DNA from: Escherichia phage ECML-117
Reading direction: 5' to 3' (one strand)
Sequence record: JX128258
Length of the DNA stretch: 64,000 bases
Under the pieces are notes generated by a model, which saw only the letters and a list, made by a program, of their open reading frames with translations, ran no database searches and was not told where the DNA came from. Both the position numbers and the translations under genes were made by a program. Positions 1 through 22,708 of the stretch are shown here, piece by piece; the stretch's first letter is position 1; each line of letters begins with the position of its first letter.

Positions 1-116
1 GCATGACGCTGACCAGACTTTAATTCAATGGGTAAGTTTTGATAAAACTAGCGGCGGAAAGTATCGCTACTATGGCGACGAGCGATTCACCACTAAATTT
101 TATAAGGTACTCGACC

Positions 117-464
117 ATGGCTCATGTTAAAGATGAAACGCTGTATGGCGCAGAGATCAAGAAGCGTGTGCGTGAGATGGCTGAAGGCGGAACATTGCTA
201 CCGCCGCGAGTCCGCTGCGACCACGTGATTGGCGTATCCGGCACGAAGGAGATGGGCGTGTTGGTGAAAGACATTCGCGTTGGGGATGTCATGGTCATCG
301 ACCGACAAGCGCGAGTCGTTATCCAGGTGCAACCGAACGATGATGAAGGATGTGTCCTATTGAAGCTGAAGAAACTTTCATCCAGCCCAGCAAAGGCAGT
401 CATCAAGAAGGTCTGGCCAGAAGGATTACGCAAACTCATTCGTCGACCCGTGGAGAATGTGTGA
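117..464 (+). CDS. hypothetical early protein (about 115 aa)
   Basis: Track ORF 39..464; in-frame ATG at 117 preceded by AAGG; stop overlaps next start (TGATG). Start uncertain. Confidence 0.4.
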   Translation: MAHVKDETLYGAEIKKRVREMAEGGTLLPPRVRCDHVIGVSGTKEMGVLVKDIRVGDVMVIDRQARVVIQVQPNDDEGCVLLKLKKLSSSPAKAVIKKVWPEGLRKLIRRPVENV

Positions 465-700
465 TGGAAGATTATATTAACGCCATGTATATGGCATTCT
501 ATGTCGTTCAACTTCCCAATGGCGCGGTATTTTATGGCGAGTACACCTTTGACGTTCAATATGGCGTTTCAGAGCGTACAGTGTTAACAAGGGAGTTGAT
601 TGCGGACCTTAAGGACGACATCAAGCGCGTCGCGCGGCAGCAGTTCAATTTGGATGACACAGTCATCGTTCGTATAACCGGAATAACAGAGGTGCAGTAA
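464..700 (+). CDS. hypothetical early protein (78 aa)
   Basis: In frame with track ORF 350..700; ATG at 464 overlaps upstream stop; its stop overlaps next start (TAATG), suggesting translational coupling. Confidence 0.45.
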   Translation: MEDYINAMYMAFYVVQLPNGAVFYGEYTFDVQYGVSERTVLTRELIADLKDDIKRVARQQFNLDDTVIVRITGITEVQ

Positions 701-1029
701 TGACCCGTGATCAGATACTCGCCGCGCATGAGCGTGAAAAGGTCAAAGATATTTGTAAAAGGCACAAATCATTTGCCGATTCTTACGCCTTCTTAAAGTC
801 CTGCATCAAGCAAAATGCAAGGATGGATAACACTGTATTGACATTCAACCTTTTGTCTAACGGAGCAAAGCTTGATGCAATATGCGGCTGCAGATTTGCC
901 AGCGTGATGTTTGAAAGATGTGCTCACAAAGACTCTTTCTTCCATCAAGTCTCTCACCGGACGGGTGATACAAAGATAACAAGGACAAGGCACGAGATAG
1001 AGATTGACCTACTCCACTATGTAAAATGA
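700..1029 (+). CDS. hypothetical early protein (109 aa)
   Basis: Track ORF; start overlaps previous stop; same strand as neighbours. Confidence 0.5.
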   Translation: MTRDQILAAHEREKVKDICKRHKSFADSYAFLKSCIKQNARMDNTVLTFNLLSNGAKLDAICGCRFASVMFERCAHKDSFFHQVSHRTGDTKITRTRHEIEIDLLHYVK

Positions 1030-1053
1030 ATATCAAAAAGGTGAGCTAAATGC

Positions 1054-1082
1054 TTGCCTTTTCTTTTATCAATACTTATACT
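1054..1082 (+). promoter_or_regulatory. sigma70-like promoter (TTGCCT-N17-TATACT) in repeated cassette
   Basis: Hexamers read directly; the same about 80-bp cassette (AAAAAGGTGAGCTAAATGCTTGCCTTTT...TATACT) recurs at 2566-2640; precedes gene at 1115. Confidence 0.45.
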
Positions 1083-1114
1083 CTTTTCATCAAGACTAAC
1101 AAGCAAGGTGAATT

Positions 1115-1432
1115 ATGATTTACTTAGGCATCGACCAGGAACAAGACGAGCGGCTAGGAAGCGTGTTAAACGTAGAATTAAACACAGCTGTACACATCAA
1201 GCCTTGGCCAGAGGCGCACCCCGACGTAGTTGTACCCGTTGCACCTTGGACTCGTTACGTTGCCATTGACAATGATGGCCTTGTCCATTGTTACTCAGAA
1301 AAGCCGACATACTTCGAAAAGTATCACCAATGGCTTATGACTGGTTGGGCAAAGGTGCGATGCTGCGGCGAAGTCGGTCTGGAAGGCTGGAGCTTCAAGG
1401 CTAGTGAATCGTGTGTCGAGGTGCAATTATGA
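1115..1432 (+). CDS. hypothetical protein (105 aa)
   Basis: Track ORF; AAGGTG 7 nt upstream of ATG. Confidence 0.55.
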   Translation: MIYLGIDQEQDERLGSVLNVELNTAVHIKPWPEAHPDVVVPVAPWTRYVAIDNDGLVHCYSEKPTYFEKYHQWLMTGWAKVRCCGEVGLEGWSFKASESCVEVQL

Positions 1433-1647
1433 ATGCCGCGCTGGGTAAGCTGTCTTTCAACAAGCGCAATGAGTTGCGCATGGTGTCTCGTTTTCAATTT
1501 TTATTAAATGCTATGTCAAGCGTTGCCATAGCAATGCTTCGCGCTGATTGCCCTGCTGAAAAGCGTGAGACTTTATTCAAGCGTCACCAACAATTACGAA
1601 ATGCTGCTTATAAACTGCAGCAATATGCTATGGAGTATGCAAAATGA
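1429..1647 (+). CDS. hypothetical protein (72 aa)
   Basis: In frame with track ORF 1411..1647; ATG at 1429 overlaps upstream stop (ATGA). Confidence 0.45.
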   Translation: MNAALGKLSFNKRNELRMVSRFQFLLNAMSSVAIAMLRADCPAEKRETLFKRHQQLRNAAYKLQQYAMEYAK

Positions 1648-1928
1648 AGATGCAAAGATGTCCACATTGCTTGTCCACGATGCGGCTTACTGCTGAAGAA
1701 TATTTACATCACGTTAACGTTTGTGAGGCTAATCCTGAAAATTCGACGCGTTACTATTATCACTATCACGCAGAAGCGGAAGATGGATCAGGCGCAACAG
1801 GAATCGTTACCACGAAAGAAATGGTGATCACCAAAAAGGCGTATGAAAGCCTGCTGGATACAATCAAGGAAGTGTCTGGCAAAGAAATAGTCTGCATTAA
1901 ATCTTTATCTTTCTTGCACGAGGTGTGA
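1644..1928 (+). CDS. small C2HC zinc-finger-like protein (94 aa)
   Basis: Track ORF; N-terminal RCPHC...H...C motif; paralogous to the next gene. Confidence 0.5.
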   Translation: MKMQRCPHCLSTMRLTAEEYLHHVNVCEANPENSTRYYYHYHAEAEDGSGATGIVTTKEMVITKKAYESLLDTIKEVSGKEIVCIKSLSFLHEV

Positions 1929-1929
1929 A

Positions 1930-2307
1930 ATGAGAATGAAGCGTTGTCCGTATTGCCACGATGTGATGCATCTTCCGCATGAAGAGTTCGTGCAGCACAT
2001 GACTAATTGTGATAAGAATCCTAAGAGTGAAAGCCAGCTTGAAGAAAGAATGTTTCTGGTGTCATTCAAGTATTCAGCTTACGATGCACAGCCTGCTTAC
2101 GGTGCACCAAGTGCTGTTTACAGACCATTGAGAAGCGACATTGACTCAATGCAGCTTGCGGCCTGGATTAACGTTAAGGAAGGCATCACTCCGCACTTTA
2201 TCGCGCGCATCCAATCTCAGATTCTACAAATCAAGCGCGAATACAACCGTGACATCACTGAAGTGAAGGTGCTTTCCATTACGCCGATGAATAAGGAGTT
2301 GCCGTGA
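1930..2307 (+). CDS. small C2HC zinc-finger-like protein, paralog (125 aa)
   Basis: Track ORF; N-terminus MRMKRCPYCHDVMHLPHEEFVQHMTNC parallels MKMQRCPHCLSTMRLTAEEYLHHVNVC of the previous gene. Confidence 0.5.
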   Translation: MRMKRCPYCHDVMHLPHEEFVQHMTNCDKNPKSESQLEERMFLVSFKYSAYDAQPAYGAPSAVYRPLRSDIDSMQLAAWINVKEGITPHFIARIQSQILQIKREYNRDITEVKVLSITPMNKELP

Positions 2308-2564
2308 ACAAGGGTCCGATGACTAAGTTGGCCGTTGCCGCGCGGAAGCTTCGACAAGCCGTTAATGGGTCGCGGCCCGTGGTGTTGACACTCGACGACG
2401 CAAAGGCGCTGGTAGAGCTACTCGACGAGCACAACCGACGAAAGAATCTGGAGAACACATTACGCTGGCGCGTCACCCCAGCCGGGCGGGAGAGCGAGAA
2501 GAAAGCTTACTTGCGACGCAAACTAATGTCAGTCGGCCTTCACGAAGAGGCGAAGAAGATTTGA
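2304..2564 (+). CDS. hypothetical protein (86 aa, GTG start)
   Basis: Track ORF; GTG start overlapping upstream stop. Confidence 0.4.
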   Translation: MNKGPMTKLAVAARKLRQAVNGSRPVVLTLDDAKALVELLDEHNRRKNLENTLRWRVTPAGRESEKKAYLRRKLMSVGLHEEAKKI

Positions 2565-2586
2565 TTCAAAAAGGTGAGCTAAATGC

Positions 2587-2614
2587 TTGCCTTTTTATTT
2601 GCCTGTATTATACT
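2587..2614 (+). promoter_or_regulatory. sigma70-like promoter (TTGCCT-N16-TATACT), second copy of cassette
   Basis: Near-identical to cassette at 1033-1082; precedes gene at 2643. Confidence 0.45.
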
Positions 2615-2642
2615 TGTTTCATCAAGCAAAGGAGAATTGATT

Positions 2643-2948
2643 ATGAGTACCGAAGCGATGAAGAAAAAGGTTTCGAATGCTTTGCAAGAAGCCGTGAACT
2701 GTGGTGCCATTAAAGAGTTCAAGGAGACTCAAGAAGGCGGTGAGCCAGTATTCTTCTTTAAGAATAAAAAGGACGGTGTTGCAGCAATCATGTTGTTAAA
2801 GAATAGTGATGACACATTTATCCTTTGCGTCGGAGGATATGACCTTATCGTTGATGATGTATTTATCAATTGTGCCGACGGTCTTAACCCTATGCTGACA
2901 TTTGAGCGTCGCACCATCCGTGTTGCAACGTTTGGAGGGAAGTTATGA
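2643..2948 (+). CDS. hypothetical protein (101 aa)
   Basis: In frame with track ORF 2583..2948; ATG at 2643 preceded by AAAGGAGA; N-terminal region similar to product of 3587..4099. Confidence 0.5.
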   Translation: MSTEAMKKKVSNALQEAVNCGAIKEFKETQEGGEPVFFFKNKKDGVAAIMLLKNSDDTFILCVGGYDLIVDDVFINCADGLNPMLTFERRTIRVATFGGKL

Positions 2949-3130
2949 GTACCGAAGTCCACAACGCATCAGCCTTGGTTAGCTTTTACCGTAACAAAGG
3001 CGTGTCGCTCGTTAAAACGCCGCAAGGGATGTTGTTCTTTGGCACGCGATTCCTGAAAGCATCGGAGCGTGAAACGCTGTCCAAGTTCGACCAGAAAACA
3101 TTGCACGCAGTTTGGAGAAGACAACAATGA
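2945..3130 (+). CDS. hypothetical protein (61 aa)
   Basis: Track ORF; start overlaps upstream stop. Confidence 0.4.
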   Translation: MSTEVHNASALVSFYRNKGVSLVKTPQGMLFFGTRFLKASERETLSKFDQKTLHAVWRRQQ

Positions 3131-3420
3131 GACTAAGCCTAGCGCAAATTCAAACATTGTACCGGATGGAAGACGGAACGCCATACATGCTGCGCGGCGA
3201 CCGCAAGAAGGCTTATGAAAAGCGGCCATCACTGTTTCACGACATCAATGCGCCATCAATCCCTGTCTTATTCCGGTTGGGCCTTGTTGATTGGGCGGCG
3301 CCAGGAGAGAAAGACCCGACGCGCTATTCATCCGTGGTGATGACAAAAGCAGGTCGCGCGGCATTAAAAGAGATTAAAGAAAATATGGCTGGAGGTAAAT
3401 ATTATGACATCAAATCTTAA
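3127..3420 (+). CDS. hypothetical protein (97 aa)
   Basis: In frame with track ORF 3112..3420; ATG at 3127 overlaps upstream stop. Confidence 0.4.
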   Translation: MRLSLAQIQTLYRMEDGTPYMLRGDRKKAYEKRPSLFHDINAPSIPVLFRLGLVDWAAPGEKDPTRYSSVVMTKAGRAALKEIKENMAGGKYYDIKS

Positions 3421-3568
3421 AGCCCGTTTATTATTCATCAAGCCGCATGTGCCATATAAGATTAGTAAGCGCACCTGGCTTAACATTTACAACCGCAGCG
3501 GCGACCGTTGTTTGTACAAGGCAAAGCGGCGCAAGAAGGTATATTCTTACACAACATCCATCAAATAA
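3404..3568 (+). CDS. small basic protein (54 aa), not in ORF track
   Basis: ATG at 3404 with GGAGGT 7 nt upstream; translation MTSNLKARLLFIKPHVPYKISKRTWLNIYNRSGDRCLYKAKRRKKVYSYTTSIK; below the track size cut-off. Confidence 0.4.
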   Translation: MTSNLKARLLFIKPHVPYKISKRTWLNIYNRSGDRCLYKAKRRKKVYSYTTSIK

Positions 3569-3586
3569 GACTAGGAGAAGAATAAA

Positions 3587-4099
3587 ATGAAAATCGAACA
3601 ACTCGAAGCAGTATTGGAAATGGCCGTAAAGGCAGGCGCAATCAAAAGCTATCGTCGCGAGAAGTCAGATAGCGATAAGGTGTTTTGTCGCAACTTCTAT
3701 ATCGTTGGCAACCTTAACGACCACTACACCATCGAGTGGTATACTAACGTGATGACCCTTAAGTCGCGCACCATGGAGCTTTGGTGTGATGACATCTGTC
3801 TTTCGAATACTCACCCAAGCTATGATGTCGCCCTGGCATTCTATCACGGAAGCCGTCAACCTGTCGCCCACATCGGTGAGAAGCATGAGCATCTTAAGGC
3901 ACGACCAGAGGAATCAATGGAAGGTTGGATTGAATGGGCTGGCGGAAAGAATCCGGTGCCTGGTAAGATGGTCGAATACAGGCTGCGCAATGAAGGGGAT
4001 AAAGTGCTGTCAAGACTCTCTGACCATCTGCACTGGGCCCATATAGGAGGACTAAAAGGTAGTGACATCATTGCTTATCGGGTCGTTAAGGAGGGATGA
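3587..4099 (+). CDS. hypothetical protein (170 aa)
   Basis: Track ORF; AGGAGAAG upstream; N-terminus resembles product of 2643..2948 (AVKAGAIKSY vs AVNCGAIKEF). Confidence 0.55.
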   Translation: MKIEQLEAVLEMAVKAGAIKSYRREKSDSDKVFCRNFYIVGNLNDHYTIEWYTNVMTLKSRTMELWCDDICLSNTHPSYDVALAFYHGSRQPVAHIGEKHEHLKARPEESMEGWIEWAGGKNPVPGKMVEYRLRNEGDKVLSRLSDHLHWAHIGGLKGSDIIAYRVVKEG

Positions 4100-4590: not shown

Positions 4591-4874
4591 CCCGTGGGGT
4601 GTGAGTCTTTATTATCGGATAAAGCGATTGATTTGTGTAAATCTATTAGAGGATGGTGGGGAATGAGGATTGTGACGTGATTTGTGTGTCTTGAATATGT
4701 GTGCGGATTTGGAAGAATATTGTACTGTGGTGCTGTGGGATTGGAGAGGGAATCACTAGGTTTTGGGGCGTGTACCGTGGTGTGTGGGCCTGTAGGCTGC
4801 GCCGTCTCTGGGATTGCCGCCTGAAATTTAAAAGGAGATATAGTTAGCTGGCTAACCTTACGTATAGAATTTAA

Positions 4875-5162
4875 GCGTATAATGACGTAAGATTTGGACC
4901 TATCCGTAGTTCACTCCACACACTTCTATGGTGCGCCGCGACTGGGTTCAGTGGTACATCTTACGGATGATACGGATGATACGCGTCGCCGCTATACTTT
5001 ATACAACTTTGAAAAAAACAATTAACTCCATTTTGAATTAATTTAAATTAATTTTTTTCTACATCCTCATACTTATACTAAACTTATGTTTATACGTATT
5101 ATCCGTAAGATATAAGTAAAAACAAAGACTTGCGGCAATACGGATGATACGTCATGATACGC
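4875..5162. promoter_or_regulatory. iteron/AT-rich control element, copy A
   Basis: GCGTATAATGACGTA at 4875-4889; tandem 9-mers in CTTACGGATGATACGGATGATACGCGTCGCCGC at 4960-4992; AT-rich tract 4993-5100; inverted ATCCGTAAG at 5101; ACGGATGATACG at 5140-5151. Homologous to copy B at 20906-21180. Confidence 0.5.
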
Positions 5163-5389
5163 TTCAACCAGCCAGCAGCGGCTAAGTCATTGATTTGCAT
5201 AACAAGCGGCGAAAGGGATGGATTTCTTTTATACGTATCAAACAGTACACCACGCACCACGGTCCGCTATTCATTCAGCACTATGATTTGTGTACTTTTA
5301 CAGCCAATTTGAACATCAATCTGCACTTGAATATAATGTTCATTCATTGTATAATTCACACTATTAATTTGCACTATGGGATTTGCACT

Positions 5390-5863
5390 ATGAGTCAAGA
5401 TTATGTAGCAATGCCTGAAGACTTTGAAGACCCGCGATTTGCAGAGCATAATCAGGCATTATTCGATGAGTTCATTGACCTTGTTATTCAGGGCCATGAC
5501 ATGCGCGCAGCTTTTGCACTAGTATTTGGCATGGAGGTTGCGACCGATAACTACACTGGCCAGCGAATCCTCTGCACGCAACGCAATCCGTACTACAAGA
5601 TGCGCTACAAAAAGCGTATGGAAGAGATGCCATTGAAGGAATTGTGGAGTGTAAAGAGTTCCATCCACAATTTAGTGAAGCTTGTGCGTGATCCAGAAGT
5701 CGCAGCATCAGCCAAGCTTAATGCCATTCGTGAACTGAATATCATCTACGGCATCACGATGATTGATGAGAATGGCAATAGTAAAATGGGCCGTTCCATG
5801 GACGATTTCTACAAGGATTTTGGAGAGGCAGCCAAAGAGGGTGAGCAATTCTCCCGCCACTAG
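5390..5863 (+). CDS. hypothetical protein (157 aa)
   Basis: In frame with track ORF 5195..5863; ATG at 5390 after two TATAAT-like boxes; the start codon overlaps a copy of the ATTTGCACTAT motif. Confidence 0.5.
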   Translation: MSQDYVAMPEDFEDPRFAEHNQALFDEFIDLVIQGHDMRAAFALVFGMEVATDNYTGQRILCTQRNPYYKMRYKKRMEEMPLKELWSVKSSIHNLVKLVRDPEVAASAKLNAIRELNIIYGITMIDENGNSKMGRSMDDFYKDFGEAAKEGEQFSRH

Positions 5864-5882
5864 CCAATTTGCACTATAAAAC

Positions 5883-5916
5883 GGCCCTAGAACACATTTT
5901 CTCCACTTCTAGGGCC
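5883..5916. other. perfect 10-bp stem-loop (GGCCCTAGAA-N14-TTCTAGGGCC)
   Basis: Read directly; lies 20 nt after the stop at 5863; no clear T-tract on the plus strand. Confidence 0.5.
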
Positions 5917-6261
5917 ATCGGTAATACGACGGGGAAGGTTACAACCATAAACGCTTTAGAAAGTGTATTATTATAAGTCATCTTTTAGTCACTTTACGTA
6001 ACAATTTACGACCTTCCGCCGTCCAGTCGAACGACTCCACCAGCAGATTTGCACTATAACCTAAGACGATGCGCCCTTTCTCGTTATCGACCCGCCAACA
6101 AGTCTCGAATAGCATTCGATTTGCACTATTAACTATCGCCGCAACGCGCGTTGGGTAAGCGCAATTTGCACTATGGTCGTAAAGGGATAAGGTGCGACCA
6201 CTTCCGATGGACAACGTAGCGATGAGAATAAGCGTATTCATAAGCCACCAATTTGCACTAT

Positions 6262-6284
6262 GAAAAGCGACCCCGAAGGGCCGC
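6262..6284 (-). terminator. putative rho-independent terminator for minus-strand gene 6292..6918
   Basis: Minus-strand GCGGCCC-ttcg-GGGTCGC hairpin (one mismatch) followed by TTTT. Confidence 0.4.
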
Positions 6285-6291
6285 CATTCGA

Positions 6292-6918
6292 TTAGATAAT
6301 CTGGAATGTGTAGGACTTGTTGCCGAACTCAAAGGTCAAGCGTCCAGCTTCTTTAAGCTTCATGCGGAAGCGAATGTGCTTGCTATCCGGTAATCCCAGC
6401 GCGGCGAACGCTACGCGGACCGATTTGAACTCGCCTACACCTTCGACCATGACGCCGTTACGGGTGAGACGCTTTTGCGCCACTTCCTTGTTATCCCAAC
6501 TTTTTGCAATACCTTCGCTATTCGAACGGCGATGGGAAGGACTGGCAATTTTATCCGCGCCAACCGGAGCATCATTCAGGCCGCTTTTAACGAAGGCTTC
6601 ATATTCTTCGTCGGTCATCGCGTCGAGTTCTTCCTGGGTCGGCTCCGCTTTTTTAACGACCGCACGCGCTTTGTGCGTTTTTACATCGCTGGACACTTCC
6701 TCGCGCGGCTTCGCGTCTGGGATGGGCGATTCGTTGGACGGCTCATCGAGCGCGTTTAAGGACTCGATTAACGCGATGACGCGAGTCTCAGCGGTGCGAC
6801 GGTCCGCAAACTTCTTAATCGGTTTTGAGCCGGAGTTAGCGTTATAGAATGCAACGAGGTCGGCGGTCTTAGTTGCGATAACGTCGCCGCTAGTAGAGAA
6901 ACGATTCAAGCTAACCAT
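6292..6918 (-). CDS. hypothetical protein (208 aa) with acidic central linker
   Basis: Track ORF; AGGAG upstream on minus strand; antisense plus-strand ORFs are Ser-rich and low-complexity; CpG-rich composition. Confidence 0.6.
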   Translation of the reverse strand: MVSLNRFSTSGDVIATKTADLVAFYNANSGSKPIKKFADRRTAETRVIALIESLNALDEPSNESPIPDAKPREEVSSDVKTHKARAVVKKAEPTQEELDAMTDEEYEAFVKSGLNDAPVGADKIASPSHRRSNSEGIAKSWDNKEVAQKRLTRNGVMVEGVGEFKSVRVAFAALGLPDSKHIRFRMKLKEAGRLTFEFGNKSYTFQII

Positions 6919-6987
6919 AATAAACTCCTAGTTTGGGAGCGGCGTTAACGACCTATTCGCTAACTCATCCCGTCCCGATATGAGTAC

Positions 6988-7015
6988 ATTATAATATAGT
7001 GTAGAAAAAAGTAAA
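6988..7015 (-). promoter_or_regulatory. sigma70-like promoter (TTTACT-N16-TATAAT) for 6292..6918
   Basis: Minus-strand read GTGCTTTACT...TATAATGTACTCATATCGGGACGGGATGAGTTAGCGAATAGGTCG is homologous to the plus-strand module upstream of 7554. Confidence 0.45.
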
Positions 7016-7059
7016 GCACTTTTTCGATAAAAATGCGATAAATTATTTTATCTTTTTTC

Positions 7060-7087
7060 TTTACTTCTTCGTACACTCGCGTATACT
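7060..7087 (+). promoter_or_regulatory. sigma70-like promoter (TTTACT-N16-TATACT) for 7144..7446
   Basis: CTTTACTTCTTCGTACACT shared with promoter at 7458; followed by TGTTTATATCGAGACGGG leader. Confidence 0.45.
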
Positions 7088-7143
7088 TGTTTATATCGAG
7101 ACGGGCGATGGCCCTTCCTTCTACTAGCATCGGGAGCTTTATT

Positions 7144-7446
7144 ATGACTACTTTAATCTCTTCCATCCTTACTTACGACGAAGACCGTTTAACCGTTCGC
7201 TCTCTTATCGCCGCCGTTAACGCGGAACTAGAATCTAGCGCCATTAAGGTCCGCGCGGTCGCCTTCATCGGCCTTTCCTTCGACGATATGAAGTACGCCG
7301 AACGTAGCGCCATCCGCTTCGCGAAGACCGACGACGAAGCCGTTACCCTTATCGAGACGGTTACGCCGCGCGGCGAAGCGTTAATTATCGTCGAGTATAT
7401 CGACGTAGAAGGCGATAAATCTTATAAACATTTTATCGCAGAATGA
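7144..7446 (+). CDS. small acidic protein (100 aa)
   Basis: In frame with track ORF 7087..7446; ATG at 7144 after GGGAG; codon usage rich in CpG, almost no CTG/CAG. Confidence 0.55.
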   Translation: MTTLISSILTYDEDRLTVRSLIAAVNAELESSAIKVRAVAFIGLSFDDMKYAERSAIRFAKTDDEAVTLIETVTPRGEALIIVEYIDVEGDKSYKHFIAE

Positions 7447-7457
7447 CGAAAAAGTGC

Positions 7458-7486
7458 TTTACTTCTTCGTACACTAAGACTATAAT
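7458..7486 (+). promoter_or_regulatory. sigma70-like promoter (TTTACT-N17-TATAAT) for 7554..7844
   Basis: Hexamers read directly; duplicated module of 7060-7087. Confidence 0.5.
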
Positions 7487-7508
7487 GTTTTATATCGAGA
7501 GGGGATGA

Positions 7509-7529
7509 GGTAGCGAATAGGTCGCTACC
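7509..7529 (+). other. leader stem-loop (GGTAGCGA-atagg-TCGCTACC) in 5' UTR
   Basis: 8-bp perfect stem between promoter and RBS; a related imperfect copy lies in the minus-strand leader of 6292..6918. Confidence 0.45.
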
Positions 7530-7553
7530 CTCCCGACTAACTAGGAGAATATT

Positions 7554-7844
7554 ATGATTACTTTAGCCGCTATCCGTTCCGCTCGCGTCGAAACTTCCGA
7601 AAACTCTAACGTATTTGGCGAAACCTTAGAGAGCGTTTATCTCTCTAACGTAGACGCAACTATCGAGTCTATTTATGAGCCGATCAACTTTCTCGACCTT
7701 TACAAGTATCGCGACGAGGACATCGTATCCTACCGCGTAACGATTAACGGCTTCGTTTATACGATCACCGAAATCGGCGGCGAATATATAGCTGTACCGC
7801 AACTCGGCGGCGAAGTAACTTACTTTAAAATCGTAAGCCTTTAA
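7554..7844 (+). CDS. small acidic protein (96 aa)
   Basis: Track ORF; AGGAGAA upstream; same unusual codon usage as 7144..7446; similar size and N-terminus (MITLAAI vs MTTLISSI). Confidence 0.6.
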   Translation: MITLAAIRSARVETSENSNVFGETLESVYLSNVDATIESIYEPINFLDLYKYRDEDIVSYRVTINGFVYTITEIGGEYIAVPQLGGEVTYFKIVSL

Positions 7845-7855
7845 GGAGAAGAAAG

Positions 7856-8065
7856 ATGACTAATATGAATAACTCTCTTAACGCGCGCGCCCATCGCACC
7901 GCCGTAATCGATATGTTTCGCGAGCTTAAGGAATTATGCGATAATATGAACGCGATGTTATCCATCGGCGGCTGGGGATACGAAGAAGAAGTTAAATACG
8001 CGGTTATGCGTCGCCGTCGCGATAACGTCCTTGGACAAATTAAACGCGCCGGATTATTCCTTTAA
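7856..8065 (+). CDS. hypothetical protein (69 aa)
   Basis: Track ORF; AAGGAGAAGAAAG upstream; same codon usage; followed by terminator. Confidence 0.55.
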   Translation: MTNMNNSLNARAHRTAVIDMFRELKELCDNMNAMLSIGGWGYEEEVKYAVMRRRRDNVLGQIKRAGLFL

Positions 8066-8091
8066 TTATAATCACCCACCGTTACTAATAG

Positions 8092-8116
8092 GCCGCGCTT
8101 AGTCGCGGCTTTTCTT
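8092..8116 (+). terminator. rho-independent terminator (GCCGCG-cttagt-CGCGGC + TTTTCTT)
   Basis: Read directly after the stop at 8065. Confidence 0.6.
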
Positions 8117-8586
8117 CGTCCCTATCTCAATGCGCTTCTCCGCGAAAATTCCTTTATCCTTCCCTTCGTCGTCGCATAATCTTCGTCGAGATGCTCCTTA
8201 GTTCGCATAACGGGTATTACGTTAAATGGAGAACATCGCGTAAGTCCTTGTTTTATATAGACACCTATATCGGACCGTTAAGGCGGGTCGCGTAAGTCGT
8301 TGTTTTATAAAGGCGCAAAACTTTCCCTTCGTTCCGAACTAAAACGAGAAATATGCGGACCCTTCGCCCGAAAATAGTACGCATGCGAAATTACCGACAT
8401 CTAGAATAATCCCCGCCGATATTATCCTACACGCAATCATTAGCCTTCGAATCATTATGCTTCATATTATTATGCATCGAATCATTCGCTTTCGAATTGT
8501 AACGCTGGAAACTGTAACGGCGATTGATTATTGCGTTCGTGTGGTTTTTATGGCATGGGTCTTTTGGTGCGTTTTGGTACTTGATG

Positions 8587-14288: not shown

Positions 14289-15749
14289 ATGAATAAAATA
14301 TTAACACATAATTGGAAAGTCATGTACCAGTTGAATCCTGCTTTAAGAGAAGTCTGGAAGACGAAAGCGCGATACAAAGTAATATACGGTGGTCGTGCAT
14401 CTTCCAAATCGCATGATGCCGCTGGTTTTGCTATTTATTTGGCGGCAAACTTTAAATTAAAATTCCTTTGCGTTCGACAATTCCAGAACAAGATTTCTGA
14501 ATCAGTATATACGCTATTAAAAGACAAAATAGAAATTTCTGATTTCAAAGATGAGTTCAACTTATTAAAGAACTCCATTGAACACAAAAGAACAAAATCT
14601 GAATTCTTATTTTACGGTATCGCACGCAATGTTGACGAAATCAAATCAACAGAAGGCGTTGATGTTCTTTGGCTTGAAGAAGCGCACGCACTTACTGAAG
14701 AGCAGTGGGACATCATTGAGCCGACAATTCGTAAGGAAGGGTCAGAAATATGGATCATATTTAACCCTGATGAAGAGGCTGATTTCGTCTACCAGAACTT
14801 TGTTATGCGACCGCCTAAAAATGCCATCGTTAAGAAGATTAACTGGCAGGACAATCCATTCTTGTCGCAAACAATGCTGGACGTTATCGCTGGCATGTAT
14901 GAGCGCGACCCGAAAAAGGCAGAACACGTTTATGGCGGAGTACCGAAGACAGGCGGCGACAAGTCGGTCATCAACCGTGCATTCGTCAAGGCCGCGCTAA
15001 ACCTCCACAAACACCCTACGTTGGGATGGAGCTTGTCAGGGTCTAACCGTATAGGCTTTGACGTGGCAGACGACGGCGACGACTTAAACGCCACAGCATT
15101 TGTCACGGGCAACGTATTGCGCGGCATCAAGACATGGGAAGGTCTGGAAGATGAATTGCTTAAGTCCGCAAGCGGAGTTTGGAAAGATGCATTAACATTC
15201 GGCGCATCAATTACCTATGACGCCATCGGTGTTGGTGCATTTGCTGGTTCAAAATTTGATGAGCTTAATGAGTATGCAATCCATGAAAATCCAACATTCC
15301 CAAGAATCGAATTTAATGCGTTCAACGCGCAAGGTGCTGTTGATGATCCTGATGACGTCTTCCTTGAGTTACCACACGTTGAAATACTCAATAAAGACCA
15401 TTTCGCAAACATAAAAGCGCAAAAATGGACTGAGATTGCCGAACGATTCAGGAAGACATATGAGTATGCAACAGGGCAGGCCGTATACCCGACTGATGAG
15501 CTGATTTCCATCGACACAGACGGCATTCCAGAACTTGGGATTCCTGCTTGGTCTGCGGAAGAAATTGAGACATTTCTTTTTGAGATGTCAGCGCCGCGCA
15601 AAGACACGTCTGTGCTTGGTAAGTTTAAAGTTGAATCGAAAAAGGATATGGCAAAGCGTGGAGTCAAATCGCCTAACAAAGCGGACGCAGCAATCATGGC
15701 GTTGATGAAACCAATTGTTGCAGCATCCGGCTTCTTCTCTAACCTTTAA
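14289..15749 (+). CDS. terL: terminase large subunit
   Basis: 486 aa; Walker A-like GGRASSKS, LWLEEAH Walker B-like segment, C-terminal nuclease-like region. TTGATA-N18-TATAAT abuts the annotated ATG, so the true start may be the internal Met at 14322. Confidence 0.8.
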   Translation: MNKILTHNWKVMYQLNPALREVWKTKARYKVIYGGRASSKSHDAAGFAIYLAANFKLKFLCVRQFQNKISESVYTLLKDKIEISDFKDEFNLLKNSIEHKRTKSEFLFYGIARNVDEIKSTEGVDVLWLEEAHALTEEQWDIIEPTIRKEGSEIWIIFNPDEEADFVYQNFVMRPPKNAIVKKINWQDNPFLSQTMLDVIAGMYERDPKKAEHVYGGVPKTGGDKSVINRAFVKAALNLHKHPTLGWSLSGSNRIGFDVADDGDDLNATAFVTGNVLRGIKTWEGLEDELLKSASGVWKDALTFGASITYDAIGVGAFAGSKFDELNEYAIHENPTFPRIEFNAFNAQGAVDDPDDVFLELPHVEILNKDHFANIKAQKWTEIAERFRKTYEYATGQAVYPTDELISIDTDGIPELGIPAWSAEEIETFLFEMSAPRKDTSVLGKFKVESKKDMAKRGVKSPNKADAAIMALMKPIVAASGFFSNL

Positions 15750-16567: not shown

Positions 16568-18943
16568 ATGAAAATTCTTGGCATAAAACTCTGGGAGAAG
16601 ACGCAACCAGAAGCCGAACCAGCGGAGATGCCGCCAGGCGACCCATTGGCACCGTTTGAACGCCTTGAAAGGCGCGGCAGCGGTCAACGCTGGGAAAAGA
16701 CTGAAAGCAATCGACCTACCTTTAAGACGGTTGATGACTTCCCTTTGTATGAGCCTGATATTAATGGCGACGGTGTTGCTATCATAAAAGGTCGTTCAGT
16801 CGATTCCGCAACAGTATCCAAAAAAGTTATGGATAATGCCTTGAAGAACATCAGTTCAGAAGGGCAGGTCAACCCATACACAGTACCTATTCAACTTCAA
16901 AACTGGTATTTGTCACAGTCATTCATCGGCTATCAAGCTTGCGCAATCATCGCGCAGCACTGGCTGGTGAACAAAGCGTGTTCCATGGTAGGCCGCGATG
17001 CAGTCCGTAAAGGCTGGGAAGTCAAATCCAGTTCTGAGTCCGAATTATCAGTGCAGGCCAGCGAACGCCTAAAGCAAATTGATAAAGAATTTAATATCAA
17101 AGAGCACTTAGTTGAAGCCGAACGATTCAAAAATATTTTTGGTATCCGCGTCATCATATTTGATGTGCGTAGCGATGACCCAGAATACTACAGTAAACCT
17201 TTTAACATTGATGGTGTGACAAAGGGGTCTTATAAGGGAATCATTCAGGTTGACCCTTATTGGATGATGCCGTTTCTGACGTCTGAAAACACAGCAGACC
17301 CTGCATCACAGCACTTCTATGACCCAGAATATTGGGTAATCAGCGGACAACGTTATCATCGCAGCCACCTCATAATCTTGCGCAACGATGAGCCAGCTGA
17401 TATTCTCAAGCCGACTTATATTTACGGCGGCATTCCTCTGACTCAGCAGATTTATGAACGCATCTATGCCGCTGAACGTACCGCCAACGAAGCGCCATTG
17501 CTGGCGATGTCCAAGCGTACAACGACGCTGCGGACCGACGTTGACAAGGCTATTGCCAATGAGCGGTCTTTTGCAGAACGTCTGATGATGTGGATCAAGT
17601 ACCGCGACAACTATGCAGTCAAAGTGCTTGGCCAAAAAGAAGAGATGGACCAGTTTGACATCAACTTGTCAGACTTCGACAGCATCATCATGAACCAGTA
17701 CCAGCTTGTGGCCGCAATCGCAAAAGTTCCGTCGACCAAACTGCTTGGGACTTCGCCAAAAGGCTTTAACGCCACTGGTGAATTCGAGATGGTCAGCTAT
17801 CACGAAGAGTTGGAAACGTGCCAGCAGCATGACCTGACAAAAATTCTCGACCGCCATTACAAAATCCTTCTCAAATCAGAAGGGGTGGATGTCGATGTTA
17901 AGGTTGCATGGGAACCAGTTGGCTCACTTACTGCTACTCAACTTGCAGAAATCAATGATAAGCGAGCCAACACTGGCAAAACTCTTATTGATGCTGGCGT
18001 CATTTCTCCTGATGAAGAGCGCGACCGCATCAAAGACGACAAAAACAGCGGCTACAACCGTCTGCCGGAAGACGCAGCAGAAGAAACCCCAGGGATGTCT
18101 CCAGAGAATATGGCATTGCTTGGCAAGTCTGCTGGTGAAGTCCTGCAAGGTAAGGCCGATATTGAACAGGCGAAGGCTGATGTCGTTAAGATGGGCGGCC
18201 AGTTCTATAGCGAAACAGGTATTATGCCAGAGGGTGCCGCGCGTGGTGAGTTGGCGGAAAACCCTGACAAAGCGCCTGTCGAAATCAACATGGACGACAC
18301 CGATGATGAATCAAGCCATCAGGTTGATGTCCTAACGCAGTTGAAAGAAGGGCTGGAGGGCATTGCGGATTACTACCTGAAAGAAGGTCAGGATGTGGAT
18401 TTTGACCCTCAAAAAGATTCACGGTCGGTGCAACCGTCTACCCTTCCAAGCGTTAAAGGACACGTCGTCAACTTACGCCACAACGTGGGTAAAATGGACG
18501 CAGCATCATTACCTAAGATGAAGTTGCACGGAATGATTCTTGGCATTGAGAATCCGCGAAACAGCATTCGTAGAGGAAACAGCCTTGACGGTGAATGGGC
18601 CGTGAAGATGCCGCACCACTACGGATTCATCAAGGGCACCAAGGGCGCAGACGGTGATGAAGTCGACTGCTTTGTGGGTCCAAATCTGAAGTCGCCGAAA
18701 GTCTTTATCGTGAACCAAAACGATAACTACTCTGGCGAGTTTGATGAACACAAGTGTATGCTTGGATTCGATTCAGCAGAAGAAGCGAAAGAAGCTTATC
18801 AAGCATCATTTGGTAACGGTTGGAACGGATTCGACTCAATCCACGAATTAGATGTGAACTCATTCAAGGAGTGGTTGAAGGGTGATTGCTCTCAAGCATA
18901 CGGAGCACTCAATAATCCTACTAATTCACCGAAGCAAGGTTGA
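16568..18943 (+). CDS. portal protein with long C-terminal extension
   Basis: In frame with track ORF 16535..18943; ATG at 16568 after AGGTGG; about 790 aa; sits between terminase and head-morphogenesis genes. Confidence 0.7.
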   Translation: MKILGIKLWEKTQPEAEPAEMPPGDPLAPFERLERRGSGQRWEKTESNRPTFKTVDDFPLYEPDINGDGVAIIKGRSVDSATVSKKVMDNALKNISSEGQVNPYTVPIQLQNWYLSQSFIGYQACAIIAQHWLVNKACSMVGRDAVRKGWEVKSSSESELSVQASERLKQIDKEFNIKEHLVEAERFKNIFGIRVIIFDVRSDDPEYYSKPFNIDGVTKGSYKGIIQVDPYWMMPFLTSENTADPASQHFYDPEYWVISGQRYHRSHLIILRNDEPADILKPTYIYGGIPLTQQIYERIYAAERTANEAPLLAMSKRTTTLRTDVDKAIANERSFAERLMMWIKYRDNYAVKVLGQKEEMDQFDINLSDFDSIIMNQYQLVAAIAKVPSTKLLGTSPKGFNATGEFEMVSYHEELETCQQHDLTKILDRHYKILLKSEGVDVDVKVAWEPVGSLTATQLAEINDKRANTGKTLIDAGVISPDEERDRIKDDKNSGYNRLPEDAAEETPGMSPENMALLGKSAGEVLQGKADIEQAKADVVKMGGQFYSETGIMPEGAARGELAENPDKAPVEINMDDTDDESSHQVDVLTQLKEGLEGIADYYLKEGQDVDFDPQKDSRSVQPSTLPSVKGHVVNLRHNVGKMDAASLPKMKLHGMILGIENPRNSIRRGNSLDGEWAVKMPHHYGFIKGTKGADGDEVDCFVGPNLKSPKVFIVNQNDNYSGEFDEHKCMLGFDSAEEAKEAYQASFGNGWNGFDSIHELDVNSFKEWLKGDCSQAYGALNNPTNSPKQG

Positions 18944-18944
18944 T

Positions 18945-19796
18945 ATGGCTTTTAAAGCTTCGAAAAAACGTGAACGCCGCTCACCCGATAGAATTGGGCG
19001 CGGCAGTCCGATAATCCCATCAAACGCTATTGCGATGGCCTACCGTCGTGAGATGAAAGGTCTTTGCTATGCGATGATTGATGACTATCAGGCAGGAATT
19101 TCAGAGTGGCTTGAAAAGAAGCAGGTGCAGAAGTTCTTTGCGCAAGACTCTGCTGATTCAACATTCCAAACTCTTATGAAACGTCTGCAGCTGAAATGGG
19201 CAAAGGCGTTTGCTCGTGTTGGGTCGAAGATTGCCGCTGATTTTATCAAATCGGTTGAAAAGGGTGCTACTTCTGCTACATTCGCCAGCCTTAAGTCCGC
19301 AGGCATAGAAGCGCCAAAGGCCACATATAACAAATTCGTTGAGAACACTCTTAGAACAAGCGAGACGTTTAACACGACTCTAGTGACTAAGGTCGGCGAG
19401 GATATTCACAACAGAGTGTACGAAGCAGTCATGCTTTCGCTGACTTCGCCCGACCCAGCCCAGCAAGGCACGTCAGGCATTCAGGCGGCGTTGCGAAACG
19501 TAAAACACTTCTCTGCAAAGAGAGTCGACTTAATCGCTAAAGACCAGACAAGCAAATTGTATTGCGTTCTAAGCGATGAAAGGATGCGCCAGAATGGAGT
19601 CGAAGAATTTGAGTGGGCGCACTCAGGAGCAGGAAAGGAGCCGCGAATCTCTCATGAACACGTCGACGGAATGAGATTCAAACTTGATGACAAGCGCCTA
19701 TGGGAAGTTGGCGGCGAATTGAAGTTCAAAAAGGGTGACATCGGTCCTCCTGGATGGGCAATACACTGCAAGTGCAGAAAAATACCAATCATTTGA
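18945..19796 (+). CDS. head morphogenesis protein (minor capsid, Mu F/SPP1 gp7-like)
   Basis: In frame with track ORF 18882..19796; position immediately after portal; basic N-terminus. Confidence 0.5.
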   Translation: MAFKASKKRERRSPDRIGRGSPIIPSNAIAMAYRREMKGLCYAMIDDYQAGISEWLEKKQVQKFFAQDSADSTFQTLMKRLQLKWAKAFARVGSKIAADFIKSVEKGATSATFASLKSAGIEAPKATYNKFVENTLRTSETFNTTLVTKVGEDIHNRVYEAVMLSLTSPDPAQQGTSGIQAALRNVKHFSAKRVDLIAKDQTSKLYCVLSDERMRQNGVEEFEWAHSGAGKEPRISHEHVDGMRFKLDDKRLWEVGGELKFKKGDIGPPGWAIHCKCRKIPII

Positions 19797-19803
19797 GGTC
19801 ATT

Positions 19804-20724
19804 ATGACGATACCAATCAGCACGTTTCCTCTATCTGGACAAACGCCAGTATTGCCTGCTGTATATGCTAACGGCTTGGCGATTGTTTCAGAATTTACAT
19901 CTGATAAAAACCTGATTGTTCCATTGAGTCCGCCATTGGCGTCTGGTTACAACTCAGTTGGTCAATTCTTTATGATCGGTAATGATGGCGATTCTACCAG
20001 CAAGCCGAATCTGACACTTTCAGTTCCCAAAATGAACATAACAGACGTGCAGACTGGTTTAACTGCATCTACAATCACCATCGCTTTTGGAGAAGCAGTG
20101 ATTATAGGTATGGAGTCTGGAGGGTCAAAGAATGCTGTCGCCGTTAAAGTGGTAAAATCAAGCGGCAACCAATACACGTTACCAGCGGCAACGGCTTCTG
20201 TTCTCGGCGGCGTCAAGATAGGAAGTGGCATAAGTGTTGCAGGCGACGGTACAATTAGTGTTACTCAATACTCGTTACCGATTGCATCAGCATCAACCTT
20301 GGGTGGCGTAAAAGTAGGAACGACACTATCAATTGATGGTTCTGGAGTTCTCAATGCTGCTGCAAGCAATGTGCAAAACACAAGCAATAGTGTAAGCAAT
20401 CCTCCGACAACTCTGGTGAATCTGGCAACATTAAACCTGCCTGCAGGGAAATGGCTTGTGACAGCAAGTCAGTTGACTGTAGCAACAGAAGGAGTTCAAG
20501 CGAATACCGGAATTACAGTAAAATTGTCAACAAGTAATTCAGATATTACGGATGATGCATTTACGATGTCGGCTGGCATTCGGGCTGCAGGTCGTTTCGG
20601 CGGCAATATTCCAACAAAGATAATTACTCTTGCCGCGCCTGGCAACGTGTATCTAAACTATCAATGCACAGACGCATTGACATCTACCGTTTACGGACAG
20701 ATCACCGCAATTAAGTTGAACTAA
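19804..20724 (+). CDS. virion protein with fibre-like repeats
   Basis: In frame with track ORF 19735..20724; repeated LGGVKIGSGISVAGDGTISV and LGGVKVGTTLSIDGSGVLN units. Confidence 0.5.
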   Translation: MTIPISTFPLSGQTPVLPAVYANGLAIVSEFTSDKNLIVPLSPPLASGYNSVGQFFMIGNDGDSTSKPNLTLSVPKMNITDVQTGLTASTITIAFGEAVIIGMESGGSKNAVAVKVVKSSGNQYTLPAATASVLGGVKIGSGISVAGDGTISVTQYSLPIASASTLGGVKVGTTLSIDGSGVLNAAASNVQNTSNSVSNPPTTLVNLATLNLPAGKWLVTASQLTVATEGVQANTGITVKLSTSNSDITDDAFTMSAGIRAAGRFGGNIPTKIITLAAPGNVYLNYQCTDALTSTVYGQITAIKLN

Positions 20725-20734
20725 AGAGGAAGTT

Positions 20735-20872
20735 ATGCAAAAGATTATCCAGTCACGTTACGTTAAAGTGCGAAATATTAATTGCAACTCTTTGCTTTCT
20801 TGGAAATGGGCTGTTTACGACTCGATGCTGATTGGCGTTTTAGTTGCTGGAGTGCTTTTTAATATTCACTGA
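20735..20872 (+). CDS. small membrane protein (45 aa), not in ORF track
   Basis: ATG at 20735 after AAGAGGAAG; translation MQKIIQSRYVKVRNINCNSLLSWKWAVYDSMLIGVLVAGVLFNIH with one hydrophobic segment. Confidence 0.35.
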   Translation: MQKIIQSRYVKVRNINCNSLLSWKWAVYDSMLIGVLVAGVLFNIH

Positions 20873-20905
20873 ATCGCCTGGCAATGGATTGTCGCAGGAT
20901 TTTAC

Positions 20906-21180
20906 GCGTATAATGACGTATCATCCGTATCAAGTAAGTAGTTGTTTTCAAAAGAATCTTACGGATGATACGGATGATACGCGTTGCCGCGATACTTTAT
21001 AGGAATTCAAATAAATTAATTTAAAATTATATATCTAATTTAATTTTATTTTTTTATAAACTCTTATATATGAAAAGTATCCGTATCATCCGTATCATCC
21101 GTAGCACACCAGTGATAGCGCGGCTTATACACCGATACGGATAAAAAATACGCCTCATCTTATCCGTATCATCCGTATCA
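20906..21180. promoter_or_regulatory. iteron/AT-rich control element, copy B
   Basis: GCGTATAATGACGTA at 20906-20920; CTTACGGATGATACGGATGATACGCGTTGCCGC at 20958-20990; AT-rich tract 21001-21075; inverted triple ATCCGTATCATCCGTATCATCCGTA at 21079-21103; inverted double at 21162-21180. Confidence 0.55.
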
Positions 21181-21289
21181 CACTAATTAAGGCGCGGCTA
21201 TATCGGCTGTTATACATATTCAAACCATAATTATTGTTTGCCTAAGTTTTTTTCATTAGATATAATACACAATACTTATTTGAGGGTGG

Positions 21290-22708
21290 ATGCGAATGCA
21301 AACGGCACGCGAAATTGACAAAAATGGATTCTTGACGATTGTGGGTTGTCCCATTTCGTCATTTGGCATTTTTGATTATTCTGCAGGTCAGGTTGGACTT
21401 GATGGTGATCCGAATCGCATCGTAAAAGTTTATCGCCCAGAGTCAGCGGTGAAAGACCCCGAAGCGATAGATTCATTCAAAAATATCCCTTTCATCGACA
21501 ATCACGAAATGCTTTCTGGATTCGAAGGTGATGAGGATAACACAGCACCCGAAGAGTATGGCGTTGATGGCGTTCTAACTGGCAATGTTTATTATGACAA
21601 GCCATGGATGCGCGGCGACCTTAAAGTTTTTAGCCGTCGTCTGAAGAAGGCCATCGACTCTGGAAAGGTTGACTTGTCTTTGGGCTATGACTGTGAATTC
21701 ATCATACAGTCTGGAGAGTTTGACGGGCAGCCGTATGAAGTGGTACAGACAACTCTTCGCGGCAACCACATTGCTCTCGTGGACGTTGGTCGAGTACCAG
21801 GTGCACGGGTGCTGGATGGTCGTTGCTTTGACCATCTTTGTTTGACGACTGTAACACCATCCAACGAGGATTTAGACATGCCAAAACCGTTAAAAGGTAA
21901 AGCGCGTGATAATGCTGTTGAACAGCTGAAATCACTGATCCCTGCGCTCGAACAATTTCTGAATGAAGAGAGCACCGAAGCTGCTCATCAGGACGAAGTT
22001 GAAGTGAAAGCAGAAGAGAAGGATTCAACCGAAGAACGTGAAGAAGTGATGGTTGATCCAGAAGTCAAAGCAGAAGCTGAAGAGACTCCAGAAGGTGAAG
22101 AGAAGTTTGAATTTGAAACTGAATCTCACGCTGGCGGCGAGCTTCCGCAACTGATCAGCCAAATCGAAGCACTTATTGCAAAACTGAAAGGTGGCGCGGT
22201 AGGTGATGAAGAAGAAGTTGAAGCCGAAGTCAAAGACGAAGAAGTTGAAGTCAAGGCTGAAGATGTATCACCTTGCGACAAAGCTGAAGATGTGGTTAGC
22301 GGCCTGCAAAACAGCAACGTAAAGGGGGCTTCGGTCGAAAAAGATGACAAACCGACAAAAGCGGCGAAAGCGTCGCCAGGTCCAGCAAAAGGGGAACACT
22401 CAATGGCATCTGATTCAGCAGTTGCTGCTTTCTACGCTGATTCTGCTCGTAAGAATAGCCTCTACCAGCGCCTGTCTAAAGTTGTTGGTGCCTTTGATCA
22501 TGCAACTATGGACTCCAAGTCCGTAGCGAAATATGGCGCTAAAAAGTTAGGCTTGAAGTGCGTTGATGGTGCTGAGTTTGACGTGGTGGATAATTATCTG
22601 CGCGGCGTTGAACACGGTCAAAAACAGCGTGTAGTCGCAAAACAAAAGGCCGCTGCGGATTCTGCAGCAACTGACGAAGCGTTTGAAGCTTGGTTGAAAG
22701 GGGAATAA
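21290..22708 (+). CDS. prohead scaffold/protease-like protein with acidic low-complexity centre
   Basis: 472 aa; Glu/Lys/Ala-rich acidic repeats (EVEVKAEE...); lies immediately upstream of the capsid gene. Confidence 0.55.
   Translation: MRMQTAREIDKNGFLTIVGCPISSFGIFDYSAGQVGLDGDPNRIVKVYRPESAVKDPEAIDSFKNIPFIDNHEMLSGFEGDEDNTAPEEYGVDGVLTGNVYYDKPWMRGDLKVFSRRLKKAIDSGKVDLSLGYDCEFIIQSGEFDGQPYEVVQTTLRGNHIALVDVGRVPGARVLDGRCFDHLCLTTVTPSNEDLDMPKPLKGKARDNAVEQLKSLIPALEQFLNEESTEAAHQDEVEVKAEEKDSTEEREEVMVDPEVKAEAEETPEGEEKFEFETESHAGGELPQLISQIEALIAKLKGGAVGDEEEVEAEVKDEEVEVKAEDVSPCDKAEDVVSGLQNSNVKGASVEKDDKPTKAAKASPGPAKGEHSMASDSAVAAFYADSARKNSLYQRLSKVVGAFDHATMDSKSVAKYGAKKLGLKCVDGAEFDVVDNYLRGVEHGQKQRVVAKQKAAADSAATDEAFEAWLKGE

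Follow-up and report, generated by a model that had tools for sequence, protein, structure and literature searches.

The question raised by this locus is why an element of short repeats and AT-rich DNA should lie in the morphogenesis region of a phage genome, in a place described as unusual for a simple promoter when it was first noticed, and what it does there. The element, referred to as element B, was found in a stretch of 64,000 nucleotides from Escherichia phage ECML-117 (sequence record JX128258), the whole of which is called the window below. The original prediction, made from the sequence, had noted that a homologous copy (element A) lies elsewhere in the window and had proposed either dual origins of replication or repeated binding sites for one phage regulator.

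The window region matches phages of the genus Wifcevirus that infect E. coli and Shigella (WFH, FEC19, Mansfield, and Bas98-101) at 99% identity; Wifcevirus is a PB1-like genus of E. coli myoviruses and distant kin of the Pseudomonas Pbunavirus. The predicted location between virion-protein genes and the scaffold gene is correct: to the left of B lie a head-fibre-like gene (19735-20724) and then a 45-aa ORF (20735-20872), which was used as the query to retrieve wifcevirus contigs, and to its right lies the prohead protease/scaffold gene, beyond which come the capsid gene and then the tail genes. According to curated relatives, the gene order before B runs terL (14289-15749), portal, Mu-F-like, head-fibre-like, and the 45-aa ORF. 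An exact-protein look-up of the prohead protease gave no match on record. The features of B and its right-hand neighbourhood are as follows.

20905-20932, minus strand: outer-left array of three inverted units, CGTATAATGA, CGTATCATC, and CGTATCAAG, partly degenerate
20955-21000, plus strand: 46-bp block, 44/46 identical to 4957-5002 of element A
20960-20986, plus strand: direct triple iteron within the 46-bp block, read from the sequence
20984-20991, plus strand: TTGCCGCG box within the 46-bp block, read from the sequence
~20995-21078, unstranded: AT-rich core of B, homologous to the core of A that carries the left terminus of the genome
21079-21103, minus strand: inverted triple iteron, three times ATCCGTATC, read as ATCCGTATCATCCGTATCATCCGTA
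21118-21125, plus strand: first copy of the GCGCGGCT box, which belongs to the (C)GCGGC(A) motif seen across genera
21134-21157, plus strand: direct unit GATACGGATAA (21134-21144), then a degenerate unit TACGCCTCA from 21149
21160-21180, minus strand: inverted double iteron TTATCCGTATCATCCGTATCA (unit pair 21162-21180)
21192-21199, plus strand: second copy of the GCGCGGCT box
21238-21266, plus strand: sigma-70-like promoter TTGCCT-17-TATAAT of the protease-scaffold-capsid operon, 10/12 match
21290-22708, plus strand: prohead protease/scaffold gene, the first gene 3′ of B in 4/4 genera

The 9-bp unit TACGGATGA is present in about 11 copies, in opposed arrays over 20905-21180, around an AT-rich stretch of 80 bp, and within the 64-kb window it is essentially limited to B and to element A (4856-5167). 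The AT-rich tract, the inverted triple at 21079-21103, and the inverted double at 21162-21180 had all been recognized in the original prediction, as had a direct double iteron at 20961-20981, which in fact starts one base earlier: the direct array TACGGATGATACGGATGATACG, read directly from the sequence, occupies 20960-20981. Every part then listed is real, but the inventory had missed the triplet at 20905-20932, the units at 21134 and 21149, and both GCGCGGCT boxes. The first outer-left unit overlaps a GCGTATAATGACGTA box, which occurs in element A as well, and the 38-bp module 21162-21199 is a duplicate of 21088-21125 with 84% identity. The inverted array at 21079-21103 forms a perfect 22-nt inverted repeat with 20960-20981, with 100 nt between them, and folding of the opposed arrays as single-stranded DNA has a z-score of -8.2. 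No Rfam family reached its gathering score on B, the best matches (20-32 bits against thresholds of 50-211 bits) being due to the large inverted repeat.

These repeats far exceed what base composition would produce. The 15-mer TACGGATGATACGGA, allowing at most two mismatches, has 10 copies where shuffles predict 0.05, with 10/10 of them in A or B, and the 9-mer GATACGGAT occurs 10 times against 0.35 expected, with 8/10 copies in A or B. Tandem Repeats Finder reported a 9-bp period at 4962, 20960, 21079, and 21162. In both elements an AT-rich core has opposed iteron arrays on either side, and the core of B includes the lowest-GC 80-bp window in the 64 kb (20996-21075, 8.8% GC). The heptamer GCGGCAA was considered as a phage-wide promoter mark and rejected: its 44 copies in the window fall mostly within coding sequence, so that by itself it lacks specificity.

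Comparison among wifceviruses revealed that B is a real non-coding module under purifying selection, with a level of conservation equal to that of the adjacent coding sequence. Public assemblies supplied ten more wifcevirus contigs, each 68-69 kb long, in which the sequence continues across B, and over 11 sequences the nucleotide diversity in B amounts to 0.015 for the AT-rich core, 0.025 for other intergenic positions, and 0.037 for the iterons, the last value being raised by a single contig from which precisely one 9-bp unit is missing; the flanking coding sequence gives 0.019-0.027. Between the 45-aa ORF and B, 32 bp (20873-20904) are hypervariable in the same 11 sequences (0.167), which gives the conserved element a sharp left edge. 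In the contig with the missing unit, Logan SRR30861143, the left direct array lacks the unit equivalent to 20960-20968, so natural wifceviruses differ in their number of iterons. In some records, ORFs have been called over the iterons or AT-rich cores (window 5099-5312 and 20844-21002, Mansfield CDS 125-283, SP13_001), and these small ORFs across A and B are probably not genes.

What B might do is best approached through its paralogue, whose features are listed here.

4798-4812 and 4932-4946, plus strand: A-specific motif TGCGCCGNNNCTGGG, two exact copies, none in B
4856-5167, plus strand: element A, paralogue of B, aligning with B in the same orientation
4962-4986: direct units of A
5003-5090: AT-rich core of A (5015-5094 has 17.5% GC and is the second-lowest 80-bp window)
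5090-5107: inverted units of A
5139-5166: further direct units of A
5030-8564, plus strand: direct terminal repeat, mapped from the WFH and Mansfield records
5309-5355: tandem sigma-70-like promoters of terS
5390-5863, plus strand: small terminase (TerS) gene, 157 aa, homologue of the TerS decamer of Pseudomonas phage E217 (PDB 7UXE, E = 9e-33)

Element A is the packaging site and the physical left end of the genome, followed by terS. The left terminus, defined as the start of the terminal repeat, falls between 5029 and 5030, inside the AT-rich core of A, and five records (WFH, WFC, Ro157lw, SP13, and Mansfield) from at least three laboratories begin with ATTTT(G/A)A..., corresponding to window position 5030. 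The repeat is present at both ends in the WFH, WFC, Ro157lw, and SP13 deposits and once in Mansfield. Positions 1-3701 of WFH recur at the right end of WFH, a terminal repeat of ~3.7 kb has been reported (Korf 2019), and Mansfield 1..3673 is annotated as a ‘direct terminal repeat predicted by PhageTerm’, with MTx annotated likewise. Its right boundary, where GGGTCTTT is followed by TGGTGCG, is identical in WFH and Mansfield and corresponds to window ~8564. The gene at 5390-5863, annotated as TerS in Mansfield, is the first gene inside the repeat. Element A lies 220-530 bp upstream of terS, and B lies 15.6 kb downstream of it, by the protease gene. Since A holds the left end of the genome and adjoins terS, the two elements are best described as a pac/terminus module and its paralogue.

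One difference between the copies may bear on the choice of cut site. The second copy of TGCGCCGNNNCTGGG falls in a 34-bp insert of A that is absent from B, and both copies are found in element A of Serratia phage MyoSmar, making this motif a candidate determinant of why A, and not B, is cut. Its CTGGG core recalls a non-sigma-70 promoter motif reported for phage 14-1; as a general promoter motif TGCGCCGNNNCTGGG was rejected, there being just two exact copies, both at A. At the opposite end of the terminal repeat, a 15-bp tandem repeat, AATCATTAGCCTTCG, is present in 4.2 copies at 8435-8497, 65-130 bp inside the right boundary. The repeat is free of iterons and not rich in AT; its motif also stands ahead of the right boundary in Pantoea phage Kyle, and it may be a right-end (termination cut) signal.

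The two elements had been called near-identical. They are indeed homologous, with 44/46 identity in the common block, but the overall identity is ~77% over 150 bp and the 34-bp insert of A separates them. They have in common the GCGTATAATGACGTA box, the 46-bp block, the AT-rich core, and the right-hand units. The pair recurs in three more genera, Kylevirus, Myosmarvirus, and Pbunavirus, with B at the syntenic spot 5′ of the protease gene and, in each genus, with the repeats of B reappearing upstream of terS. Each genus has an iteron sequence of its own, common to its A and B: GAATAACCN with a 9-bp period in Pantoea phage Kyle, ACTTTTCG / CACTTTTN in Serratia phages MTx and MyoSmar, and GTAATTTG in Pseudomonas phage Ab27. 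The motif TGCCGC(G) / (C)GCGGCA accompanies the arrays in all genera. In Kyle, AATAACC clusters are confined to 17676-17956 (B) and 69451-69736 (A), and the 3603-bp terminal repeat of this phage begins within the AT-rich core of its A; likewise, the PhageTerm-predicted repeat of MTx begins inside the A of MTx. For Pbunavirus, position 1 of Ab27 was set by a fixed read end (Essoh 2015), and a ‘putative pac site 59,376’ was given for JG024 on the strength of long reads together with a pac restriction fragment (Ipoutcha 2024). The fixed end and the pac site turned out to be the same base, between CAGCGAAAA(T) and CGATTGC, inside the Pbunavirus A.

Cognate pairs of A and B give local alignment scores of 104-113 (61 for MyoSmar), compared with 21 +/- 2.5 for shuffles and 18-31 across genera; the aligned stretches cover 150-277 bp at ~72-77% identity, and 33-50 canonical 9-mers are common to cognate pairs, compared with 2-11 for pairs from different genera. 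The elements are thus unalignable between genera and alignable as paralogues within a genome, which means that A and B evolve in concert. As their likeness runs through the non-iteron spacer, gene conversion in addition to common selection is suggested, and judging by these alignments recurrent gene conversion probably keeps the two alike. In most of 13 loci with a TerS homologue, nine of them on metagenomic contigs, an AT-rich dip and lineage-specific repeated 8-mers are seen 315-640 nt upstream of terS. A partner B was sought for the metagenomic TerS lineage by a gapped-pattern scan, which proved too unspecific. Xanthomonas phage FoX7 (Carpasinavirus) encodes a homologue of TerS (31% identity) and has its head genes in the same order, and no A/B iteron pair was detectable in it, so it is not a fifth genus and the A/B system is not universal in the wider group. 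In the literature consulted, where the Pbunavirus B core appears as a predicted promoter (Garbe 2010) and pac as a single putative position (Ipoutcha 2024), neither the paralogy of A and B nor the way in which the pair co-varies between genera was found described. The proposal that the repeats represent binding sites for one phage regulator is well supported by iterons that are common to A and B and vary with the genus, together with the conservation of B, and on these comparisons A and B would be its putative targets.

The promoter next to B is separate from the element, a distinction that the original prediction had not made. The sigma-70-like promoter at 21238-21266, a 10/12 match unchanged across 11 wifcevirus sequences, sits 3′ of the last iteron, which ends 58 bp 5′ of the -35 hexamer, the majority of units being 100-330 bp 5′ of it; inside B just a weak 9/12 match is present. 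In four genera, the promoter that drives the protease-scaffold-capsid operon is invariably preceded by B, and a sigma-70-like promoter is found 3′ of both elements, with a similar layout visible in relatives. AT-rich intergenic motifs had been noted in JG024 without an assigned function (Garbe 2010).

Taken together, these data lead to a reading in which B is a conserved paralogue of A that acts as a second docking site for the pac-recognizing phage protein, most likely TerS, a reading to which we give about even chances. Both elements would be nucleoprotein assembly sites, in which opposed lineage-specific iterons and GCGGC boxes surround an AT-rich core that could easily be bent or melted, and one phage-encoded protein would bind the two. 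TerS is the best candidate for this protein because its gene is always next to A, terminase acts at A, its rings carry helix-turn-helix domains, and its putative recognition-helix region varies between genera. The TerS of the E217 family is a decameric ring with outward-facing helix-turn-helix domains (PMC9611059), and a 9-bp repeat is compatible with DNA wrapped on a ten-subunit ring at ~9-10 bp per subunit, as far as geometry goes. At A, the sole carrier of the TGCGCCG...CTGGG insert, TerS would pass the DNA to TerL, which would cut inside the AT-rich core. The same complex would assemble at B as well, without generating a mature end. B, which has neither this insert nor a mature end, is therefore read as a further place for docking and not as another cut site. 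By analogy with the gene 16 and gene 19 sequences of T4, B may be the partner in a TerS-mediated pairing of two pac-like sites; it may also, by analogy with an operator, couple expression of the head operon to the TerS level, the two uses being compatible. A bolder version, in which packaging in PB1-like myoviruses, the therapeutic Pbunavirus phages among them, needs the pairing of A and B by TerS, the complex at B couples head-gene expression to packaging, and TerS-driven recombination homogenizes the copies, is regarded as unlikely.

Several observations count against parts of this scheme. In purified form, E217 TerS did not bind DNA appreciably in vitro, with DNA that was possibly non-cognate (PMC9611059), which speaks against the TerS assignment, and going by sequence the binder could equally be another lineage-specific DNA-binding protein. 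Opposed arrays are unexpected as contacts of a single C10-symmetric ring, and FoX7, with its TerS homologue and no A/B pair, weighs against the main reading too. So does the 84-bp tract of 9% GC between iterons, which has the textbook look of a replication origin.

Were A and B two replication origins, an initiator would bind the iterons and melt the core, and terminase or end processing would exploit the origin at A. An AT-rich element of 8.8% GC adjoining iterons is indeed what was found, these being the two most AT-rich tracts of the window, although this is an argument from appearance only. Precedents exist in the dual dispersed origins oriL and oriR of Bacillus phage SPP1, which have common repeats bound by G38P, and in the promoter-plus-AT-rich origins of T7, both internal and near the ends; moreover, in Pbunavirus and Myosmarvirus the gene directly upstream of A encodes a large primase-like protein with HHpred-reported similarity to papillomavirus. 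Iteron-type origins, however, usually have helically phased iterons of 17-22 bp and a Rep/initiator encoded nearby, whereas the units here are 8-9 bp head-to-tail, and no initiator was annotated in curated relatives or detected next to B, the adjacent and terminal-repeat proteins giving no Rep-like Pfam or PHROG match. No DnaA box (TTATCCACA, at most one mismatch) occurs in A or B, and the element has no similarity to plasmid replicons. In one Pbunavirus study, phage Banzai has its GC-skew minima among the replication genes and not at either element; within the window, GC skew was discarded as an origin indicator, since its direction flips where gene orientation changes and the cumulative curve, following gene orientation, is uninformative on origins here. 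Packaging is the only function of the module with an experimental anchor, provided by the ends and the pac fragment. The dual origins first suggested have thus gained no positive support, and we consider them improbable.

Similarly doubtful is a scheme in which the iterons are an operator or enhancer for a regulator other than TerS that controls the terS and head promoters together, the terminus being set by A-specific sequences. The fixed position of B beside one promoter could mean a purely transcriptional role, every genus has a sigma-70-like promoter and a late gene 3′ of each element, the A-specific motif is absent from B, and the B core of JG024 was itself earlier predicted as a sigma-70 promoter (Garbe 2010). 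A candidate is at hand in a 69-aa protein of the terminal repeat (7856-8065, plus strand; phrog_10377, ‘transcriptional regulator’, E = 1.6e-37), an alternative regulator at A and B; among the terminal-repeat proteins other than TerS, no DNA-binding Pfam match was obtained. The spacing is less favourable, with the nearest iteron 58 bp from the -35 hexamer and most units 100-330 bp away, and this scheme leaves unexplained both the long AT-rich core between opposed arrays and the terminus inside that core in four genera, while other late units (terL, portal) have no iterons. A use of B as a second, minor site of packaging initiation or cleavage, yielding a subpopulation of ends, appears much less probable still. 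The B core shares homology with the region in which A is cut, and the record of the Pbunavirus E215 (MF490241, positions 1 and 66789) opens and closes inside the B core, between GTTC and CAATAG, ~15 nt away from where the pac end of A would fall by homology, a break that may stem from assembly or mark a genuine minor end. One metagenomic wifcevirus contig of 68.5 kb in IMG/VR (3300045988_152943) ends at window 20956; this is the start of the 46-bp block common to A and B, as for a repeat assembly break, which is the simplest explanation of it. Against such cutting, 0/27 wifcevirus GenBank records start at B, the terminal-repeat records start at A, the 10 metagenomic contigs of 68-69 kb cross B, PhageTerm gave a single terminal repeat, and the A-specific insert is missing. 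Finally, a non-functional duplication or chance cluster is effectively refuted by the comparative data: repeat counts far above the shuffle expectation, an A/B pair kept with co-varying iterons in four genera, and a diversity in B as low as in coding DNA.

The docking-site reading can be set beside several known systems. The pac of P1 has hexamer clusters flanking the cut region, and the pacL-pacC-pacR region of SPP1 is bound by the TerS protein G1P. As in these sites, short repeats lie on either side of a terminase cut region at or near terS, which applies to A, and to the architecture of B by homology. Unlike them, B lies 16 kb away from terS and does not form a mature end, the core is ~85 bp long at 9% GC, and the repeats are 9-bp tandem units in opposed arrays; to our knowledge, no second conserved pac copy has been described for P1 or SPP1. 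In lambda, cosB combines R sites for gpNu1 with an IHF bend and adjoins cosN. Mixed-orientation repeats by the cut site and upstream of terS are a common trait, TerS binding being putative here; the differences are two copies instead of one, a 3.5-3.7 kb terminal repeat or headful ends instead of cohesive ends, and the absence of an IHF consensus from B, a single one being found at the right flank of A. The oriL/oriR pair of SPP1 offers a parallel for two dispersed copies of repeats plus AT-rich DNA, one of them in the late region, with a common binder that is putative here; unlike those origins, A and B have no initiator gene or DnaA boxes, the unit is 8-9 bp, and one copy is a packaging end by terS.

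The closest parallel is T4, whose TerS (gp16) binds a pac in gene 16 that recombines with a homologue in gene 19 (Wu, Wu and Black 1991; PMC10893049), a finding that led to the twin-ring synapsis model (PMC10893049). In both cases two dispersed homologous pac-like sequences, one of them by terS, bracket terL: A (4856-5167) and B (20905-21199) are in direct orientation, with terS, terL (14289-15749), and portal between them. The T4 sequences are short, GC-rich, in coding DNA, and a few kb apart, whereas those described here are 300-bp intergenic iteron/AT-rich modules, 16-20 kb apart and present in four genera, for which pairing is putative. Recombination is documented for the T4 copies and is suggested for A and B by their concerted evolution.

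If the bolder pairing version is true, A and B would represent a natural, selected, genus-spanning version of the T4 twin-ring synapsis model. A conserved, co-evolving second pac-like site, if borne out, would offer independent natural evidence for, or a clean test of, the long-debated pairing of two pac sequences by TerS ahead of the cut. The iteron arrays of both elements are concrete candidate cognate sites for TerS of the E217 family. Pbunavirus and Wifcevirus phages have been used or considered for therapy and rebooted synthetically; the locations of cis packaging elements matter for genome design and stability, and the directly repeated 46-bp blocks that bracket terS, terL, and portal are relevant to genome stability.

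Among the viral contigs searched, the iteron array is confined to wifceviruses, and a pattern scan of metagenomes for the element returned only two contigs, neither informative about ends. The iteron 22-mer gave 19 matches in 596 Gb of bacterial genomes, mostly Asp/Thr-rich tandem codon repeats in unrelated taxa. Three Bacteroidales contigs (Alistipes / Rikenellaceae MAG) have TGATACGG-type arrays, some of them opposed, which resemble the wifcevirus iterons, probably by convergence.
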